Origin: Escherichia coli | GTDB lineage: Bacteria > Pseudomonadota > Gammaproteobacteria > Enterobacterales > Enterobacteriaceae | NCBI RefSeq assembly: GCF_030013595.1 | Contig: NZ_CP122768.1 | DNA length: 64,000 nt | Reading direction: 5' to 3' (one strand) | Shown: positions 9,721 to 53,082 of the stretch, one piece after another | How the letters are laid out: each line of letters starts with the position of its first letter | Position numbering within the stretch: position 1 is the stretch's first letter | Made by a program: the position numbers and the translations under genes | Notes under the pieces: generated by a model | Databases searched by the model: none | The model's input: only the letters and a program-made list of their open reading frames with translations | What the model was told of the DNA's origin: nothing

Positions 9721-11088
9721 TTAGATTGCCCAACCACCCGCGTAAAATGCGACCAGTGCGGCAGTAATGATCACCGTACCAATATTCAGCTTTTGCCATT
9801 CGCGGGCAAAGACGCGGCCTACGACCAGTGTCACAAAGCCCAGCATAATACCGGTAACGATATTACAAGTCAGAACGATGAACACGGCACACACCAGGCC
9901 AGCCATTGCGTCAATAAAATCATTGAAATCCAGCTTCGAGACGTTACTTAACATCAGCAAACCTACGTACATCAGAGCGGGTGCAGTGGCGTAACCAGGG
10001 ATCAAAAATGACAACGGTGATAAGAACAAAATCAGCAGGAATAACGCCCCCACTACGGTTGCGGTCAACCCTGTTTTACCCCCGGCGGCGGTTCCTGCCG
10101 CTGATTCGATATAAACCGCTGCGGGCGCTGCGCCCACCAGGCCGGAGAATATTGAACTTACTGAGTCACTGGTCAGGGCTTTGCCGCCGTTGATGATCTG
10201 GTTGTCTTTATCCAACAAATTCGCCTGACCGGCGACGGCACGGATGGTACCAGTGGCGTCGAACACTGCGGTCATCACCAATGCTAGTACACTCGGAAGT
10301 ACAGTTGGCTGGAGTGCGCCCATAATATCGAGGCTGAAAATCAGAGACTTACCATCTTCGCCAGTCAGGCTTGGCATCGCCACCAGACCGTGGTATTTCA
10401 CCGCTGGATCAAAGATTAAGCCGATGATCGAAATTGCAATAATCACCAACAAGATCCCGCCTGGTACGCGGCACTTTTCCAGACCGAAGATGACCGCCAG
10501 CCCCAGCAAGCTCATCATCACCGGGAAGGAGGTAAACGCACCGAGCGCCACTGGCAAGCCTTCAATCGGGTTTTTGATAACCATTCCCACACCGTTAGCA
10601 GCAATCAGCAGCAGAAACAGGCCGATACCGATACCTGTACCGTGAGCTATCCCCATCGGTAAATTACGTAAGATCCAGGTACGCACACCGGTTACGGAAA
10701 TGGCGGTGAAGATGACGCCCATCAGAAAGACCGCGCCCAGTGCGACAGGAACGCTAATTTGTTGCCCGAGAACCAGACTGAATGCGGTAAACGCCGTCAA
10801 GGAAATCGCGCAACCAATCGCCATTGGCAAATTGGCCCATAATCCCATCAGCAACGAGCCGAAGCCCGCGACCAGACAGGTGGCAACAAACACAGCTGCG
10901 GGAGGAAAACCTGCTTTGCCCAGCATTCCCGGAACGACGATAACGGAATAAACCATGGCCAGAAAGGTCGTTAAGCCAGCCAGTACTTCCTGACGAACGG
11001 TACTGCCACGAGCGGTAATTTTAAAATAATTATCCAGCGCGCCCTGTGGCTTTGGTGCGTCCGGTGTTTGTAGGATGTCTCCAGACAT
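9721..11088 (-). CDS. ghxQ: Guanine/hypoxanthine permease, NCS2/AzgA-like
   Basis: 455-aa membrane protein, [34 protein letters not shown]... Confidence 0.9.
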
Positions 11089-39207: not shown

Positions 39208-40422
39208 ATGCTGCTTTCAGACCTTGCCATCAGGCGCGCGAAGCCGAAAGAAAAGGCTTATACACTCAATGACGGTAACGGGCTTTCGTTGCTCATTGAG
39301 CCGAACGGTTCGAAAGGGTGGCGACTGCGCTACAGGTTTGCAGGAAAGCCCAAAATGTTGTCGTTGGGTGTGTACCCTGATGTGTCTCTGTCTGATGCCA
39401 GGGCGGCAAGGGATGAGGCTAAAAGGCTTCTTGCTGGTGGTATAAATCCAAGTGAGGCCAGAAAAGCCCAAAAGCGAGAACAGGCGAGCAAATTTGGCAA
39501 TACTTTTGAGGGTATTGCTCGCGAATGGTACGAAAAGCGGATCGACAGGTGGTCATCGTCATACGCCGAGGAAATGATCGAGACGTTTGAAAAAGATGTT
39601 TTTCCGTACATTGGCGGTAGGCCGATCGCAGAAATTAAGCCGATGGAATTGCTGGCGGTTCTTTCCCGTCTTAATGACCGTGGTGCGACTGAAAAATTGC
39701 GTAAGGTTCGCCAGCGATGCGGCGAGGTGTTCCGGTACGCAATCATCACCGGACGCGCCGAATATAATCCAGCCCCTGACCTGGTGAGCGCATTTGCTCC
39801 ACATAAAAAAGAGCATTACGCCTATTTGAAGGCCGACGAACTGCCGGAATTTTTCCGCGTTTTTAATACGTACACCGGAAGCCAGATCGTCAAACTGGCA
39901 ATGCGGCTATTAATTCTGACAGGTGTCAGACCCGGGGAATTACGGCAGGCAGAATGGCAGGAGATCGATTTTGATAATCGTTTGTGGGAAGTGCCTAAAG
40001 AACGAATGAAGATGCGCCGTCCGCATTGTGTGCCATTACCAGAACAGGCGATAAAAATACTGGAGCAGTTAAAAAACATGACAGGCCAGTATCAGTTTAT
40101 TTTCCCCGGTCGTATTCACCACAGTAAGCCAATGAGTGAAATGGCGATGAATGTGCTCATTCGTCGTATCGGCTATGCCGGGCGCGTTACTGGTCATGGA
40201 TTCCGGCACACCATGAGCACCATTTTGCATGAGCAGGGCTATAACACCGCGTGGATAGAGACGCAGCTCGCACACGTCGATAAAAACTCAATTCGTGGCA
40301 CATACAACCATGCGCAATATCTGGATGGTCGCCGGGAGATGCTCCAGTGGTATGCCGACTATATGGATTCGCTCGAGCATGGCGGTAACGTGGTGCATGG
40401 CAAGTTCGGAAAATGTGGATGA
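39208..40422 (+). CDS. int: Tyrosine recombinase, P4-type integrase
   Basis: N-terminus MLLSDLAIRRAKPKEKAYTLNDGNGLSL...WRLRYRFAGKPK and catalytic-region residues (HGFRHT, LAH...RGTY); start after GGAGC. Confidence 0.9.
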   Translation: MLLSDLAIRRAKPKEKAYTLNDGNGLSLLIEPNGSKGWRLRYRFAGKPKMLSLGVYPDVSLSDARAARDEAKRLLAGGINPSEARKAQKREQASKFGNTFEGIAREWYEKRIDRWSSSYAEEMIETFEKDVFPYIGGRPIAEIKPMELLAVLSRLNDRGATEKLRKVRQRCGEVFRYAIITGRAEYNPAPDLVSAFAPHKKEHYAYLKADELPEFFRVFNTYTGSQIVKLAMRLLILTGVRPGELRQAEWQEIDFDNRLWEVPKERMKMRRPHCVPLPEQAIKILEQLKNMTGQYQFIFPGRIHHSKPMSEMAMNVLIRRIGYAGRVTGHGFRHTMSTILHEQGYNTAWIETQLAHVDKNSIRGTYNHAQYLDGRREMLQWYADYMDSLEHGGNVVHGKFGKCG

Positions 40423-44348: not shown

Positions 44349-44639
44349 ATGAAAAAGAAAAATTCTGGCTTTACTGCCAGCGGCCCCGCTCGGCCTGAAA
44401 TCAGACACGGCGATATTTACCGCGACACCAGACGCGGGGGACGAGTGGTTATTCGTCACGTTACGCCAGGCAATATCACCTACCGCCGCGAGGCTTACGA
44501 ATATGACTGCGTAATGCCGCGCCGTCAGTTTGAGCGTGATTTTATTCTGGTGGAAAACAAACAACAGGCGGTGGCGAGACGTGCAGCCACGAATATTAAA
44601 AAAATCCGGGCAATGTTGGTTGCGGGAGGTAAGAAGTGA
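44349..44639 (+). CDS. Hypothetical protein (96 aa)
   Basis: AGGAG Shine-Dalgarno; stop overlaps the GTG start of the primase gene. Confidence 0.5.
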   Translation: MKKKNSGFTASGPARPEIRHGDIYRDTRRGGRVVIRHVTPGNITYRREAYEYDCVMPRRQFERDFILVENKQQAVARRAATNIKKIRAMLVAGGKK

Positions 44640-46384
44640 AAAACGCACCGAATTTGAAATATCAGCCGAAGGATAAATTCACTGAGGTTATCATTTTTGC
44701 CGGGACGGATGCTTACGCCCATGCCCAACACTGGATTGAAAGCGAAGGACGAAAACATGGCGATAACGTGCCACCCGTTTATCTGGGGCCAAAGCAACTG
44801 GCAGACCTGGCGAATATCCGCATTGTCGACGATGAACGCCGCTTTGCGCGTGTTTATATCGCGGGGGAGATAGAGCCAATCCAGATCAACGCTATCGCTG
44901 AAAAACTGGCGCTGGCTGGCGTACAGGAGGCGAAATTATACAAAGGCATCACCGACCGGGAGCCGGAGAACTGGCGCGATTACCTGCAACGGTTACGCGA
45001 ACAGGCTGAGCGCGGAGAAATTCTGTCAGGAAGGACCGAGAAAAAACACAAAATATCTCTTTCCAGAATGGCGGACAGCCAAAGGGCAAAACTTTTAGCT
45101 GAACGATTTCAGGATGTAGCAATGAATCAGGAGAGTGAGGTTGTCCACGTCTGGCGCGATGATTTTTGGGTTCCGGTAAGCACACTGGATCTTAGTCGTG
45201 AAATGGTGGCTATTTACGAAGAAAACGGAACAGCGTTTAGCCGGAGAGCAATAAGCAATGCAGTGGATGCTTTAAAAGTTATGGCCAGGCCAATGGGGGA
45301 GCCGTCAGGTGATTTATTGCCGTTCGCTAATGGCGTGTTTGACCTGAAAACTGGCGAATTTTCCCCGCACTCGCTGGATAACTGGATCACCACGCATAAC
45401 GGCATTGAGTACACGCCACCAGCACCAGGGGAGAACATCCGCGACAACGCGCCAAACTTTCATAAATGGCTTGATCACGCTGCAGGAAAAGACCCGCGAA
45501 AGATGATGCGTATATGCGCTGCGCTGTACATGATTATGGCTAACCGGTACGACTGGCAAATGTTTATTGAGGCCACAGGAGACGGCGGGAGCGGCAAGAG
45601 CACATTTACGCACATAGCCACCCTTCTGGCAGGGAAACAGAACACGGTAAGCGCCGAAATGACATCGCTTGATGATGCTGGCGGGCGTGCACAGGTTGTC
45701 GGAAGTCGTCTTATTGTCCTGACAGACCAGCCGAAATATACAGGCGAAGGATCGGGAATCAAGAAAATAACTGGCGGCGACCCCGTGGAAATTAACCCGA
45801 AATATGAGAAGCGTTTCACAGCAATTATCAGGGCTGTCGTGCTGGCAACAAACAACGTGCCGATGATATTCACCGAACGGGCCGGAGGCGTTGCACGTCG
45901 ACGTGTAATTTTTCAGTTCGATAATATTGTAAGGGAGGCCGAAAAGGATAAAGAATTACCGCAAAAGATAGCGGCAGAAATACCTGTCATTATTCGTCGA
46001 CTGCTTACTAACTTTTCAGATCCAGAAAAAGCACGAGAATTATTGCTTGATCAGCGTGACGGTGCCGAAGCTCTGAAAATAAAACAGGAAACTGATCCTG
46101 TCATTGGGTTATGTGCGGCGCTTGCATTTCTTGACGAACCGCATGGAATGATGATGGGAGGCGGTAAGAGAACAGTTGACCTTAACCCACGTACAAGTCT
46201 GTACAGGCTTTATCTTGCCTTTATGGAGTACATAGGCAAAGAAGAAAAATTAAGTGTTAATGATTTTGGTAAGGCCATGAAGGCGGCTGCAAGAGAATAT
46301 GGAGCTGAATATCTGACCAGAGGTTTTAAAGGACGAACACAAACTAACGTTATAAGAACGGAGAGAACCGAGGAATTTTTATAA
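44636..46384 (+). CDS. Phage/plasmid primase-helicase (P4-alpha / PICI Pri-Rep type, SF3 P-loop)
   Basis: Walker A GDGGSGKST and Walker B-like LIVLTDQP; GTG start behind GGAGG; iterons immediately downstream. Confidence 0.85.
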   Translation: MKNAPNLKYQPKDKFTEVIIFAGTDAYAHAQHWIESEGRKHGDNVPPVYLGPKQLADLANIRIVDDERRFARVYIAGEIEPIQINAIAEKLALAGVQEAKLYKGITDREPENWRDYLQRLREQAERGEILSGRTEKKHKISLSRMADSQRAKLLAERFQDVAMNQESEVVHVWRDDFWVPVSTLDLSREMVAIYEENGTAFSRRAISNAVDALKVMARPMGEPSGDLLPFANGVFDLKTGEFSPHSLDNWITTHNGIEYTPPAPGENIRDNAPNFHKWLDHAAGKDPRKMMRICAALYMIMANRYDWQMFIEATGDGGSGKSTFTHIATLLAGKQNTVSAEMTSLDDAGGRAQVVGSRLIVLTDQPKYTGEGSGIKKITGGDPVEINPKYEKRFTAIIRAVVLATNNVPMIFTERAGGVARRRVIFQFDNIVREAEKDKELPQKIAAEIPVIIRRLLTNFSDPEKARELLLDQRDGAEALKIKQETDPVIGLCAALAFLDEPHGMMMGGGKRTVDLNPRTSLYRLYLAFMEYIGKEEKLSVNDFGKAMKAAAREYGAEYLTRGFKGRTQTNVIRTERTEEFL

Positions 46385-46401
46385 GAGTAATGCCTGCAAC
46401 A

Positions 46402-46691
46402 GGTAGACGGGTAGATATTGGGTAGATGCTAGTTTTATGGATGCCTACCCGCTGAATCCCTTGCGCCACAAGGGATTCAGCGAAATAGGTAGATAGGGTA
46501 GACAATATCTCGCTTAAAAACTTTTTTACGCAGCGAAAGGAAAATACAGGTTAGAGAATGGAGAGTTAAAAGAAAGTCACTTTTACTATCTACCCTATCT
46601 ACCTAATAGATAAAAGTTGTTTTTTATCATTGTGTTAAGTGGGTAGATAACCGTTTCTTTGTTGTCTACCTGTTATCTACCTTGTCTACCC
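46402..46691. repeat. Putative replication origin: at least 11 copies of the iteron GGGTAGA(T/C) in both orientations, an 11-bp-arm hairpin and an AT-rich stretch
   Basis: Iterons at 46402, 46409, 46420, 46488, 46496, 46588, 46597, 46641, 46664, 46675 and 46684; inverted repeat CTGAATCCCTT/AAGGGATTCAG at 46452-46480. Confidence 0.7.
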
Positions 46692-46760
46692 ATAAGATGA
46701 AAGTACCGGATACGCCGTGAAGGTGCAGGCAGTGAAGCCCTGGTTATCGCATGTACCAAG

Positions 46761-47108
46761 ATGAAGGATGCGGAGGAACTGAAAGAAATGGCTTGCGATT
46801 TGCGCGAGGTTGAGCTTTTCAAGGATGAAGGCGGGGAGTTAATCACGTCGTTGGTGCTGGAGGATAAGCCCCGCCCACCCGTTGAACTGGAGCGCATCGA
46901 GTACGCTGCTAACAAGACAGAGAATCACGACGCGCTATGGGGCTGTATCCGTTCACGCACACAGCGCGGCGATAAATGCACTATCCCGTTGTTGCGCGAT
47001 GACATGAAAAAGCTGGGGTATGAGATGAAACACTTCCGGCGCTGGCTGTACAAGCTGGAAAGCGACGGCGTAATCGCTATTGACGGTGATTATGTGCGCC
47101 CACTGTAA
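46761..47108 (+). CDS. Hypothetical protein (115 aa)
   Basis: ORF only; sits between the origin and the GTGAGGA array. Confidence 0.4.
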   Translation: MKDAEELKEMACDLREVELFKDEGGELITSLVLEDKPRPPVELERIEYAANKTENHDALWGCIRSRTQRGDKCTIPLLRDDMKKLGYEMKHFRRWLYKLESDGVIAIDGDYVRPL

Positions 47109-47495
47109 AAAGTGAGGAGCAAAAGTGAGGATGGCGGGTAATTTAACAAAAAATCAACGCCACTCCTCACTTTCTCACCTGTATATAGGTCAAAAAGTGA
47201 GGAGTTAAAAACACATTGCAAAACAACAGATTACAACAATAAAGAAAACGACTGAGGAGCAGAACAAGAATAATAAAAAGTGAGGAACAAAAGTGAGGAA
47301 TGGTGAGTTAATAGAAATGAGGTAATAAAAATAACAGGTAGGTTAAAAAACACACCATGCAAGATATTAACTAAAACTTAACTATTTACCTCACTTTTGC
47401 GTATATATAAGGATTAAAAAGTGAGTACTTAAAAATACATTTAAAATCATATTGTTATTAACTTCATAAATTTTCACTGTGCAGCAGGTGAGGAA
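47107..47495. repeat. AT-rich non-coding array of at least 8 copies of AAAGTGAGGA (both orientations)
   Basis: Copies at about 47107, 47121, 47161 (inverted), 47193, 47276, 47289, 47388 (inverted), 47417 and 47487; no ORF of 60 aa or more. Confidence 0.6.
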
Positions 47496-47574
47496 TTAAA
47501 AAATCAGGAATGTTAAAAATGAAAACAGAATGTTGTGTCAGTGCCGTTGGGCAACGTAGCAACCAGTAAAAACG

Positions 47575-48117
47575 ATGGGGCAAAGCATGACTAAGCTGAC
47601 CATTAACAGAAAACCGAAAGGCATTTACGGCACGCCGCAGAAAACGACGCAGGCGGCGCAGGAGCAGGATAAAACCACATCGGCGCATAAAGTGATGCCC
47701 GGTAACCAGAAAGCGCAGCAGAAGCCCACAGGGGCGACACCGTGGCGGCATATGACCAAACGCCAGCGCAAAAACCGCAGGCGCGTTAACCGCCTCACTG
47801 AGTTGTGGCCTGAATTATTCAGCCGGGAAGCACCGAAGCCGCTTAAGGTGGGGATATTCGACGACCTGATGCAGGATCTCGCCGTCAGGGGGCTGGCATT
47901 CGGTCCAGGGGCATTGCGTGCGACGCTGGCATCTTATGCGCAGTGTCCGCGCTATTACCGCGCCTTAATGGCTGGTGGGGTACGCTACGACCTGAAAGGC
48001 CAGCCGTGCGGCGAGGTGACACCACAGGAACAACAGGACGCCGAAACGCGGCTGGTGGCGCTGAATGAGAAGCGCAAACGTCAGCGCCGGGCAGCAAAGG
48101 AGAAAACAGGCGCATGA
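47575..48117 (+). CDS. ProQ/FinO-domain RNA-binding protein
   Basis: LTELWPELFSREAPKPLKVGIFDDLMQDL...RATLASYAQCPRYYRALMAGGVRYDLKGQPCGEV parallels the recalled ProQ N-terminal domain (RFPHCF...RPLKIGIFQDL...RVDLDGNPCGE). Confidence 0.7.
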   Translation: MGQSMTKLTINRKPKGIYGTPQKTTQAAQEQDKTTSAHKVMPGNQKAQQKPTGATPWRHMTKRQRKNRRRVNRLTELWPELFSREAPKPLKVGIFDDLMQDLAVRGLAFGPGALRATLASYAQCPRYYRALMAGGVRYDLKGQPCGEVTPQEQQDAETRLVALNEKRKRQRRAAKEKTGA

Positions 48118-48401
48118 TTCACGACAGCAAAGCGGAAGCACTGGAAGCGCGTGGTCTGTACCGGAGAGCGGCGGCGCGGTGGGCTGAGGTCATCATGCTG
48201 GCGAATGATGACAAGGCACGGGAACAGGCGGCAAAACGTCGCGCGGAATGTATCCGCAAGGCAGCACGCCCACCAGCAAGGCAGGATAATTTCGGGGAAA
48301 TGCGCGAAACCATCAGCCGGGCACATGCCGGGATGGGATTACATCAGCCCAATGGTAAGGCATTCAGGAAATACCCTGGATCGAAAAATTGCAGTCAGTG
48401 A
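48114..48401 (+). CDS. PerC-family transcriptional regulator (copy 1)
   Basis: MIHDSKAEALEARGLYRRAAARWAEVIM...RRAECIRKA matches the PerC/Pch family signature as I recall it; ATGA overlap with the ProQ/FinO gene. Confidence 0.7.
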   Translation: MIHDSKAEALEARGLYRRAAARWAEVIMLANDDKAREQAAKRRAECIRKAARPPARQDNFGEMRETISRAHAGMGLHQPNGKAFRKYPGSKNCSQ

Positions 48402-48405
48402 CAGA

Positions 48406-48430
48406 AGCCGGGATTTTTCCCGGCTTTTTT
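48406..48430 (+). terminator. Rho-independent terminator after the PerC-like gene
   Basis: AGCCGGG-attttt-CCCGGCT followed by a T6 run. Confidence 0.75.
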
Positions 48431-48442
48431 GTGCCAGTAAAA

Positions 48443-48477
48443 AGCCCGCAGCCAGAAGTGTTGCGGGCTTTGTTTTT
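48443..48477 (+). terminator. Second tandem rho-independent terminator
   Basis: AGCCCGCA...TGCGGGCT followed by TTGTTTTT. Confidence 0.65.
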
Positions 48478-48596
48478 CAGGTGATTGAAGTCAATGGGAA
48501 GAACGCGATCATCATGCGTTATCGCTTCATAAATTGCAACGATGTAGATCGTTATTTCAGTTTGTGCAATCATAATCATTGTTTTGTTCAGGAGAT

Positions 48597-48776
48597 ATGA
48601 CTATGAGAAAAGCCAGCGTGAAACCCGTTTTACTCGCTCGTGATCAGATTGAAGCATTACAGCGCATCCAGGACGAGGAACGCCGCAATTCTCCGCTGGG
48701 GATTGCTCCGAGCATTCATGAGGTCGCCCGGCGTTTAATGCAGCGGGCGCTTTATCCCGTAGAACGTCCGGCCTGA
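48597..48776 (+). CDS. Hypothetical small protein (59 aa)
   Basis: ATG behind CAGGAG; MTMRKASVKPVLLARDQIEALQRIQDEE... Confidence 0.4.
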   Translation: MTMRKASVKPVLLARDQIEALQRIQDEERRNSPLGIAPSIHEVARRLMQRALYPVERPA

Positions 48777-50826: not shown

Positions 50827-51110
50827 CGCGAAAAGTGTCAAGTCAGGCCGTCTGCCGGGTTGACACTTTACACTCTGAACGCGAAAAAGTGTCAACCTCG
50901 CTGTAAGCCCCGCCATTACTGGCCTTTCGCCAGATTTACCACGTCAAAAAGCCGAAAAAATCGCGAAAAGTGTCAAGTTGCCATGCTTAGAAATGCTAAG
51001 GTTTGATAAGGTTTTTCGCGAAAAAGTGTCAAGTGTGTCAACCTGCGATGTTAAGATTTGTTAAGGTCTTAAGCCGGAAAGTGTCAACCAGCCCCTAAGA
51101 TTTCCTAAGG
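50827..51110. repeat. Array of at least 6 copies of CGCGAAAAGTGTCAA plus three TAAG(A/G)TTT doublets
   Basis: Copies at about 50827, 50861 (inverted), 50880, 50960, 51016 and 51078; non-coding. Confidence 0.6.
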
Positions 51111-51118
51111 TGTAAATC

Positions 51119-51409
51119 ATGACCATCACCGAAGCCGATATGCTGGAGATGATCCGCAGCATTGCCGGAATCAGACCACCAGCAGGCAAACAGGAGGCCA
51201 CGCAGCCGGACAGCGTTATCGCTGAGAACTATGCGCGTGTGGTGGCTGAGGTGATGCGCCGTGACGGTATTGAGCTTAACGGAGTGGATATGCGCGACAT
51301 ACGCACCAGGGTACTCGAGTTATTGGCCTACCGTCGCCGCGTGCAGATGTACCGGGAGAGCGAGAAAAAGACTTACCAGTGGAAGAAGCCGGAGCGGTTA
51401 CGGCGGTAA
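51119..51409 (+). CDS. Hypothetical protein (96 aa)
   Basis: ORF behind an AAGGTG Shine-Dalgarno. Confidence 0.45.
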   Translation: MTITEADMLEMIRSIAGIRPPAGKQEATQPDSVIAENYARVVAEVMRRDGIELNGVDMRDIRTRVLELLAYRRRVQMYRESEKKTYQWKKPERLRR

Positions 51410-51459
51410 CCAGTTGATAAAAAGGCTCCTCAATTTTGAGGAGGGTAGCTGGTGGCTGG

Positions 51460-51481
51460 CAGAATGTAAATTTACATTCTG
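51460..51481. terminator. Perfect 22-bp palindrome between convergent genes (bidirectional terminator or protein site)
   Basis: CAGAATGTAAATTTACATTCTG, preceded by a second hairpin CTCCTCA-attt-TGAGGAG at 51426-51443. Confidence 0.5.
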
Positions 51482-51511
51482 GTGATTTAATCATCTGATT
51501 TACCCGATGGC

Positions 51512-51802
51512 TTACCTTACCAGGCCATAGCGGATTACCGTGCAATGCGCACCATCGCCACCAATACGCACATCAAAACGTGGCTCACGGACTTTCACAC
51601 GCTCCAGCAACTTATCACGAACCATAGCGTTTAGCGTCCTTCGTGTTGCCTCTATGTGATATCGCTGATATTCGGAACCATAGAGCAGCACTGTAACACC
51701 ACGAACATCAAAAGGTGGATCTCCAGCCTCCACCCGCACCCAATCGCGATACTCAGGTTTGTAGAGTTCAAGGATCTGTTTTTTGTGCCTGGTCATTCTC
51801 AT
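51512..51802 (-). CDS. Hypothetical protein (96 aa)
   Basis: Minus-strand ORF with a protein-like composition; palindromic operator upstream. Confidence 0.45.
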   Translation of the reverse strand: MRMTRHKKQILELYKPEYRDWVRVEAGDPPFDVRGVTVLLYGSEYQRYHIEATRRTLNAMVRDKLLERVKVREPRFDVRIGGDGAHCTVIRYGLVR

Positions 51803-51916
51803 GCGTGCAACTCCTTATTGTGGGACAGTACTGTCATACAATAAGCTATACGGAAAATTATCAAAAGAACAGAAACCAACCATTCAGATTTAACAGGTAT
51901 CAATGGGATTATGCTT

Positions 51917-52219
51917 ATGGTGCATGATGACAAAGCGGAAGAACTGGAAGCGAAAGGCTTATGGCGACGGGCGGCTAATCGCTGGGGTGAGTTACTGAAA
52001 CAGGCGGCAAGTGATGAAGCGCGTCAGTATGTAACGGAACGACGAACGGCATGCATCCGGAAGGCAACCATAACCCGGGAACCGGAAAGAGACCTGATTT
52101 GTGCCATAAGAACCGCCGCCACAAAAACACTAACGGATATGGGGATCGACCTGAAAAAAGAAGATCCACTGCGGGGCATTCAGCACGGACATACAAAGCA
52201 GGATAAACGCAGGAAGTAA
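51917..52219 (+). CDS. PerC-family transcriptional regulator (copy 2)
   Basis: MVHDDKAEELEAKGLWRRAANRWGELL...RRTACIRKA parallels copy 1 at 48114 (clear paralogue); alternative ATG at 51911. Confidence 0.7.
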   Translation: MVHDDKAEELEAKGLWRRAANRWGELLKQAASDEARQYVTERRTACIRKATITREPERDLICAIRTAATKTLTDMGIDLKKEDPLRGIQHGHTKQDKRRK

Positions 52220-53082
52220 ATTTTTTCGTGTAACCAGGCAACCGACTATCTGAAAGATAGTCACACCCTACCGGGATCACGCTAGTAACGCACAACAGAG
52301 TGACCCATAGCCACCCTGTTTAACCGTTCCGGCTGGCTGGGCAGATTTTGCGCGGGTCTTATAGTCCCTCACAACAGAGTAAATAAAATTGACTTGGTTA
52401 CAGAGTAACCAAACCGGAGATTCCCGGTTTGCTCAAAAAATGACAATGAGTTACGCCCCTAACCTAAGTAATCCTTACATTCACTGCATCATCACCATGA
52501 TGGTGACGCAGCCCACCAGCAACCATAACGATTTCCGTTACAGTTGATGTGCTTTTTTGCTGGTAAGGCGTAACCCGTTGATTGTTCCAGAATCCACCAT
52601 CGGTGGAAGTTGAAAAACTCACCCGCCAGATTCTGAATGGTGAAAATCACCGGGGATCTGAATAGGCATTTCCTCTATGGAGGTCGCACCGTTTTCGGGA
52701 GAAGGTGCGATCATGTTCGTCATACCTGTTCCGTTGAAACGGAATACCCCATTCCGGCGTAGCTGGTGGACGCACAGCCACATACGAAAAATTGCATTCA
52801 GGAGGGGGGATCGAAATCCCTACCCCCCATTGCTTATGGGACCGCCCGCCCCGTCAAATTTTTACACCCGCGAAATTAAAAAAATGCGTCGCGCTGGTGG
52901 GCCTGATGCCGATATGGGGATTCCCATAACGGGTTATCCATGATCATCCACCAGCTTGATAACGGATAACAGGGGATGCGAAATCCTCAAGCGAGTGATA
53001 AACGTGTATAGAAATGTGTATAGAATCTATTTTAGAACTCGAGAATGTGCCTTTATTACTGGTCTTGTTGCTTGTTGTATTG

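Follow-up and report, generated by a model that had tools for sequence, protein, structure and literature searches.

What is the origin, and what is the function, of a dense array of short repeats which fills a non-coding gap in an Escherichia coli chromosomal island, between a truncated helicase gene and a gene encoding a ProQ/FinO-domain protein? The array is found in a stretch of 64,000 nucleotides (hereafter, the window) from an E. coli chromosome which is 99.8% identical to that of strain cq9. Its island, of ~11 kb, has the gene order of a phage-inducible chromosomal island (PICI) with, successively, an integrase, a small HTH regulator, AntA/AntB, Icd-like, DUF4222, a primase, a RepA helicase pseudogene, the array, ProQ/FinO, PerC and DUF2213. 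No att repeats of at least 14 nt were found between 39300-40100 and 50900-52600. From the sequence alone, an earlier note had proposed that the array could be an enhancer or operator, a second cis-acting replication region like the crr of P4, or the template of a structured RNA.

The comparison presented here makes it likely that the array is the iteron-type replication origin of a RepA-family (AAA_25) helicase-initiator module of enterobacterial PICIs. The whole explanation, also considered likely, is that this module has been displaced in the window, that its array was exchanged by a crossover, and that what is left is probably a passive relic. A conspicuous array would thereby be explained without new biology, and the links suggested with ProQ/FinO and with RNA would be removed.

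Two arrays in one island

The repeat unit, AAAGTGAGGA, occurs between 47109 and 47299 in six exact copies, located on the plus strand at 47109, 47122, 47194, 47277 and 47290 and on the minus strand at 47164. Two more copies have one mismatch (47388, minus strand; 47418, plus strand), which bears out the earlier count of at least eight copies in both orientations. When one mismatch is allowed, 8 of the 14 matches in the 64-kb window fall inside the array, and a total of 14 was reached in none of 100 shuffles (mean of 3.56 per window). Similarly, if the density seen elsewhere in the window applied to 47106-47500, 0.02 copies of the AAGTGAG core and 0.43 of GTGAG would be expected there; the counts are eight and 11, respectively. 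Four further copies are degenerate (47172-81 on the minus strand, 47300-09, 47314-23 and 47485-94), which brings the array to 12 RTGAG cores, nine on the plus strand and three on the minus strand. The intergenic stretch which holds them (47109-47574), previously described as an AT-rich non-coding region of ~460 bp, measures 466 bp and has a GC content of 32.6% vs 48.6% for the window (36.5% in 47109-47300 and 26.4% in 47300-47500). Its only open reading frames are two of 43 aa, both on the minus strand, and it is followed at 47575 by the ProQ/FinO gene, of which the array had rightly been placed upstream. A full-text literature search for the repeat sequence returned 918 primer matches, all irrelevant.

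The array consists of one module present twice, ~168 bp apart, in which a direct pair of repeats is followed by an inverted pair around GTATATA. The first direct pair (47109-47131, plus strand) comprises the exact copies 47109-18 and 47122-31 and begins one base past the stop codon of the helicase remnant; its counterpart is located at about +2 and +14 from the helicase stop codon in ~60 relatives. The first inverted pair (47164-47203) is organized around TGTATATA (47180-87), with 47164-73 and the degenerate 47172-81 on the minus strand and 47194-203 on the plus strand, and its 22-nt arms are 86% complementary. The AT-rich spacer which separates the two iteron sets (47204-47276) is a candidate unwinding region, since its position matches the AT-rich center of published PICI and SaPI origins (PMC6092414, PMC9371898). 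The second iteron set (47277-47323, plus strand), made of the exact copies 47277-86 and 47290-99 and of the degenerate copies 47300-09 and 47314-23, has its counterpart at about +140 to +195 in relatives. Beyond it, the second inverted pair (47388-47427) duplicates that of the first module, 47388-97 on the minus strand and 47418-27 on the plus strand surrounding GTATATATA (47401-09); this pair is present in the long form of the array, which is found in the window and in the related loci L002, L003, L077 and L086. The array ends in an AT-rich tail (47428-47518) with the last degenerate copy, CAGGTGAGGA (47485-94), which reads GTGGGGA in the G-type array of L077.

The island contains a second set of repeats, on the other side of the helicase remnant. 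The gene at 44636-46384 encodes a 582-aa "DNA primase family protein" which, because it carries D5_N, DUF5906 and Pox_D5 (Pfam), can be assigned to the D5/P4-alpha-like SF3 primase-helicases. Directly 3' of this gene, the region 46385-46700 contains 11 TCTACC repeats in both orientations (46402-46690) in a layout like that of the GTGAGGA array, and it is probably the island's own working origin. The two repeat types do not overlap, TCTACC being found 11 times in 46385-46710 and never in 47101-47520, and GTGAGGA being absent from the primase-side origin; the earlier statement that the array differs from the origin iterons is thus correct.

This distribution bears on the proposal of a second cis site, comparable to the crr of P4, on which the D5/P4-alpha-like primase-helicase of the island would act. 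In P4, alpha-dependent replication requires a further repeat region, crr, and the array is located ~400 bp from the primase-side origin. However, the repeats of crr match those of ori, and the array, from which TCTACC is absent, is therefore not crr-like for the primase-helicase; in addition, islands with a non-RepA replication gene (L087, H22-H25) lack the array. A crr-like role is thus hardly credible, and what stands of the proposed second replication region is a replication-type iteron array. P4 does resemble the present case as an E. coli phage satellite with a repeat-based origin, the current replication protein of the island being alpha/D5-like, but the crr and ori repeats of P4 match and serve one protein, whereas here the two arrays differ and belong to alternative modules.

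The primase-helicase (window 44636-45061) and the RepA-type helicase of strain ETEC1747 (L002:7990-8418) have their first 143 residues in common, with 59% identity, and then diverge completely. From these two sequences, a common N-terminal domain has likely been joined to alternative helicase engines, where it would provide a recombination point for module swaps.

The helicase module in relatives

In related islands (L002, L003, L004 and L077-L085), the array starts where the intact gene for a 471-aa "helicase RepA family protein" ends, at its stop codon, and in all intact relatives examined this putative origin lies immediately 3' of the rep gene, as PICI and SaPI origins do. Of 5426 complete E. 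coli genomes, 373 contain array-like sequence and 561 (~10%) the full-length helicase module, with up to 5 helicase places per genome; in all 60 array matches listed, a RepA-family helicase is the feature annotated at the match. The 471-aa helicase contains an AAA_25 domain (Pfam, residues 152-320), and its sole solved structural relative by sequence is RSF1010 RepA (1g8y), a weak match (E = 0.005).

The motif search in related islands which the earlier note had called for was informative. In a scan of the Enterobacterales, with one genome per species, 72 loci encode relatives of the helicase, and ~60 of them conserve the array layout, with repeats at nearly fixed places in the 250 bp past the helicase stop codon. 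These comprise plus-strand copies at ~+2 and ~+14, a minus-strand copy at ~57, GTATATA and a plus-strand copy at ~+86, followed by a variable AT-rich stretch and then by two to four plus-strand copies at +140 to +195. The unit of diverging repeats around GTATATA (~+57/+86) is found in E. coli, Xenorhabdus, Serratia, Pectobacterium, Kosakonia and Hafnia, with an iteron sequence own to each. The repeat is AAGTGAGGA in E. coli and Xenorhabdus, AAGTGGGGGA in Serratia, Pectobacterium, Erwinia and Morganella, AAGTGCGGC in Kosakonia, Phytobacter, Rosenbergiella and Enterobacter soli, AAAGTGCGCG in Hafnia, and ATGGGGG in Citrobacter and Kluyvera. Between the E. coli and Xenorhabdus arrays, the repeat columns are 97% identical vs 65% for the other columns. 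No clear array was seen in 10 of the 72 loci (L021, L025, L042, L055, L057, L059-61, L063 and L015), L015 having scattered copies only and none in the 1-mismatch motif search. The GAGGA of the repeat, which had been read as Shine-Dalgarno-like, turned out to be incidental, relatives having GGGGA, GAGTA, GGGCA, GGGGG or GCGGC at this place.

The gene past the array varies by locus and can be a hypothetical gene with SSB, an integrase, PerC, a 257-aa hypothetical gene, terS or ProQ/FinO. Conversely, in strain RM9088 (L087), ProQ/FinO-PerC lies behind a DUF927 replication gene with its own repeats, arranged likewise: TTGTCTC copies around TGTATATATATAG (L087:1780-2180), upstream of ProQ/FinO-PerC, which constitute a third replication module. 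Upstream of ProQ in this locus, the AGTGAG and AGTGGG cores and GTGAGGA are absent. In H22-H25, similarity to the window begins only at 47560-47571, just ahead of ProQ. Since the array follows the helicase with varied downstream genes, and since ProQ/FinO-PerC also occurs without the array, ProQ/FinO appears to be only the next cargo module, each alternative replication gene seemingly bringing its own repeat array, and the functional link to ProQ/FinO put forward in the earlier note is not retained. In L003 and L077, the 257-aa hypothetical gene is located between the array and ProQ/FinO; a 16-codon open reading frame at 47519-47569 of the window is its stump, the rest being deleted in the window and in L002.

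The same comparison weighs on the possibility that the repeats form an operator or promoter array, on which a regulator would control transcription of the downstream ProQ/FinO-PerC genes. The array is indeed upstream of ProQ/FinO, its inverted repeats flank a -10-like TATATA, and promoters are common in AT-rich DNA. Nevertheless, a sigma-70 scan of 46300-48600 gave no promoter-like site against 2.9 expected by chance, the array goes with the helicase and not with the variable downstream gene, and ProQ/FinO-PerC is found without it. Moreover, the repeats co-vary with the winged helix of the helicase, as described below, and with no regulator examined. Transcriptional control by this array is thus considered very unlikely.

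A role as template of a structured RNA, for instance a partner of ProQ/FinO in which the inverted repeats would form stems, could account for a plus-strand fold better than that of shuffled sequences (z = -3.0, with 0 of 100 as good) and for the two arms of the inverted pairs changing together between array types. However, the direct copies switch together as well, a behavior for which stems offer no explanation, and a low folding energy is expected of any inverted-repeat DNA site. Rfam, searched with a permissive E-value, returned only eukaryotic miRNA models at 19-28 bits vs thresholds of 60-97, that is, sub-threshold noise. No plus-strand terminator-like site was found past the array before 48441, downstream of PerC, the two matches ahead of this position being on the minus strand, inside the ProQ gene. 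As many loci also have the array without ProQ/FinO, an RNA is not needed to explain the repeats and is considered highly improbable here.

The reading as a replication origin of the RepA-helicase module would, in turn, define such an origin for a module spread across Enterobacterales, in classical and capsid-forming PICIs. In clone D i14 (L088, 7001-12487), the same RepA helicase is followed by an intergenic gap of ~200 bp, known from its length alone. This island encodes a major capsid protein, a head decoration protein and a small terminase and is thus a capsid-forming PICI, which indicates that the replication module crosses PICI sub-types.

The winged helix, its repeats and known origins

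In the AF2 model, the last ~65 residues of the helicase are predicted to form a winged helix (H-H-H-beta-beta) with pLDDT above 93; in the 120-aa fragment, helices span residues 59-74, 80-89 and 97-106 and a beta hairpin residues 110-119. The best PDB matches of this C-terminal domain (Foldseek) are the wHTH DNA-binding domains of HrcA, PcaR, DtxR, LexA and ORC, with probabilities of 0.9-0.97 and weak E-values (0.1-0.5). On the basis of this model and of these weak-E-value matches, the helicase would have the winged-helix domain of a PICI/SaPI Rep.

Just before the third (recognition) helix, at its predicted N-cap, lies residue x of a K-x-F-x-R-W-L motif, and this residue tracks the base which follows GTG in the repeat: Asn goes with A (KNF with GTGAG), His with G (KHF with GTGGG), Lys with G(GGG) (KKF with GTGGGGG) and Ser with C (KSF with GTGCGGC). 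No locus with both an intact helicase and a recognizable array (~60 loci) departs from the rule. Other positions of the helix track the next variable base, FRRWLY being associated with GGA, MRRWLA with GTA and LKRWLA with GCA. In protein-DNA contacts, Asn usually pairs with adenine and His with guanine. In E. coli alone, three protein backgrounds show the Asn/His swap, each time with an A/G switch of all repeat copies: L003 vs L004/L080, in which the last 70 residues differ at x only, L002/L078 vs L081, and L079/L084 vs L083/L085. Common descent is a partial confounder of the co-variation between clades, and clear independence is limited to these three swaps within E. coli. Where the array lies, how it is laid out and how it co-varies with the recognition helix are thus read directly from the compared sequences. 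As in PICIs and SaPIs, the iterons co-vary with the Rep DNA-binding domain, the exception being the relic of the window (and of L001), and such co-variation is what an initiator-iteron pair would be expected to show. It would represent a natural recognition rule, in which one residue at the start of a recognition helix is set against one iteron base.

It has been shown that PICI and SaPI origins are located immediately 3' of rep and comprise AT-rich DNA with a set of iterons on either side (Fillol-Salom et al., 2018, PMC6092414), and that the rep-ori segment of EcCICFT073 drives plasmid maintenance (PMC6092414). The SaPI Rep helicase is also the initiator, its C-terminal winged-helix domain recognizing iterons directly downstream of the gene (Qiao et al., 2022, PMC9371898), which are copies in opposite orientation on each side of the AT-rich center (PMC9371898). 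In the window, 47109-47203 and 47277-47323 similarly form two iteron sets, with both orientations represented, on either side of AT-rich DNA. The likeness with PICI/SaPI origins (Ubeda et al.; PMC6092414; PMC9371898) thus extends to the location 3' of rep, to 6-12 short iterons in two sets and opposite orientations around AT-rich DNA, and to a self-loading helicase initiator whose C-terminal winged helix, here predicted, reads iterons with a specificity which varies by island. In contrast, the helicase considered here is a RecA-fold RepA/AAA_25 protein, whereas the characterized SaPI Reps are SF3 or MCM-like and that of EcCICFT073 is P4-alpha-like, the repeat is 10 bp long instead of 5-6 bp, and the origin in the window is separated from its initiator and has the wrong specificity for the remnant. 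As judged from its sequence, the array therefore appears to have all the features of a PICI/SaPI origin, while the helicase class differs. EcCICFT073, whose Rep (tested in Fillol-Salom 2018) is a P4-alpha-like Pri-Rep and not of the RepA-helicase type, provides the only tested E. coli PICI origin found in the literature, in which no description of an origin of the RepA-helicase module was found.

Two other systems offer more distant parallels. RSF1010/IncQ oriV has in common with the present module a related ATPase core (AAA_25; 1g8y) and an origin made of iterons and AT-rich DNA. In IncQ plasmids, the two tasks are divided, iteron binding falling to RepC and RepA serving as helicase only; in contrast, the helicase described here brings a winged-helix domain itself, and its gene is directly adjoined by the iterons. 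At the origins of SV40 large T antigen and papillomavirus E1, inverted initiator sites flank a short AT-rich element on which a self-loading hexameric helicase assembles. This likeness is by analogy only, the helicase superfamily and the DNA-binding fold being unrelated, and no homology is claimed.

By analogy with the SaPI/PICI Rep proteins, from which binding, melting and self-loading are inferred, the recognition helix of the C-terminal winged helix would, in intact relatives, read the 10-bp repeat. The direct pair, where the helicase gene ends, the inverted pair, around GTATATA, and the second set of repeats would all be occupied by helicase molecules. Melting of the AT-rich stretch which separates the sets would follow, and at this place the helicase would load itself.

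A probable stranded origin in the window

In the window, what precedes the array (46701-47108, plus strand) is a relic of the RepA-family helicase-initiator gene, consisting of its last 135 codons (residues 337-471), with 84% identity to the intact 471-aa helicase of L002 over residues 337-471 (tblastn). It keeps the winged-helix domain without the ATPase domain (AAA_25, residues 152-320). Homology to the helicase begins at 46701, immediately beyond an in-frame TGA (46698-46700) which follows the last TCTACC repeat. The earliest possible start codon of the relic is at 46761, with no GGAG-type ribosome-binding motif seen upstream, and PGAP annotates a pseudogene "missing N-terminus". No other RepA homolog was found within the 64-kb window. 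The specificity codon of the relic (47031-47033, CAC) encodes His, and the array is of the A type. The island thus has in cis a relic only, whose His remnant mismatches the array, and among the ~60 loci with a recognizable array, this mismatch is restricted to the window and L001, from the same strain.

The comparison of two strains accounts for such a combination. PapRG-04-4 (L086), a baboon isolate, has the same helicase-relic junction, with a KHF remnant and then a matching G-type array, and the window agrees with this hybrid as far as 47031, where the His codon begins. Over the following positions, 47032-47834, the window matches ETEC1747 at 100% identity, a strain with an intact Asn-type helicase and an A-type array; this patch of ~800 bp runs ~260 bp into the ProQ/FinO gene. 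From these identities, a second crossover, within 30 bp past the specificity codon, appears to have uncoupled the codon from the repeats. A mismatched recombinant should be tolerated only if the helicase was already dead. The helicase would thus have been replaced by the D5/P4-alpha-like primase-helicase with its own TCTACC origin, and the later crossover would have brought in an array of another specificity, leaving an intact-looking origin without matching initiator in the island.

As a consequence, the array is rather probably inactive in this island, and the simplest and most likely reading is that of a passive relic which travelled with neighboring DNA. Being 100% identical to the one beside an intact helicase, the array shows no decay, as would be the case after a very recent transfer, but also if it were still in use. 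An orphan array could still be used if the Asn-type RepA helicase of a co-resident PICI fired it in trans, or if it titrated or interfered with a competing satellite. Several observations are in line with such use: the exact identity over 800 bp to the ETEC1747 origin, which adjoins an intact Asn-type helicase; the presence in strain cq9 (NZ_CP031546.1) of two array-like places, the second of which, outside the window, could be a PICI with a matching helicase; and the frequent occurrence of several such islands in E. coli genomes, with up to 5 helicase places each. A reciprocal orphan also exists, a TCTACC-type region in a RepA-type island (L002:10030-10420). Yet the array may have hitch-hiked, as the identical patch runs ~260 bp into ProQ/FinO, and in the orphan array of PapRG-04-4 one inverted copy is mutated in the GTG core, which does not vary elsewhere, suggesting that constraint is relaxed in orphan arrays. 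Continued use in trans is thus regarded as unlikely. If true, the Asn/His (A/G) switch would define replication "incompatibility groups" among satellites, and gene conversion from a co-resident satellite would have produced the exact 800-bp patch. That orphan origins are kept on purpose, for replication by a co-resident RepA-type PICI or for titration of its helicase, is considered quite unlikely.

The passive relic would be an example of satellite replication modules swapped by recombination at or inside the rep gene, with stranded origins left behind, and predictions of satellite origins or of compatibility from sequence must allow for such module swaps. ETEC1747 itself carries the reciprocal relic (L002:9884-10420), in which a ProQ/FinO 5' fragment is followed by ~390 bp of GGTAGAC/GTCTACC repeats; this region (10030-10420) corresponds to a primase-type origin without primase gene, in a RepA-type island, and it indicates that stranded origins recur in this island family. 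The ETEC1747 PICI (L002:3666-14522) is inserted inside a type I-E CRISPR-Cas operon, with cas5e on one side and a Cas5 fragment, cas7e, casB and casA on the other, cas3 being frameshifted.
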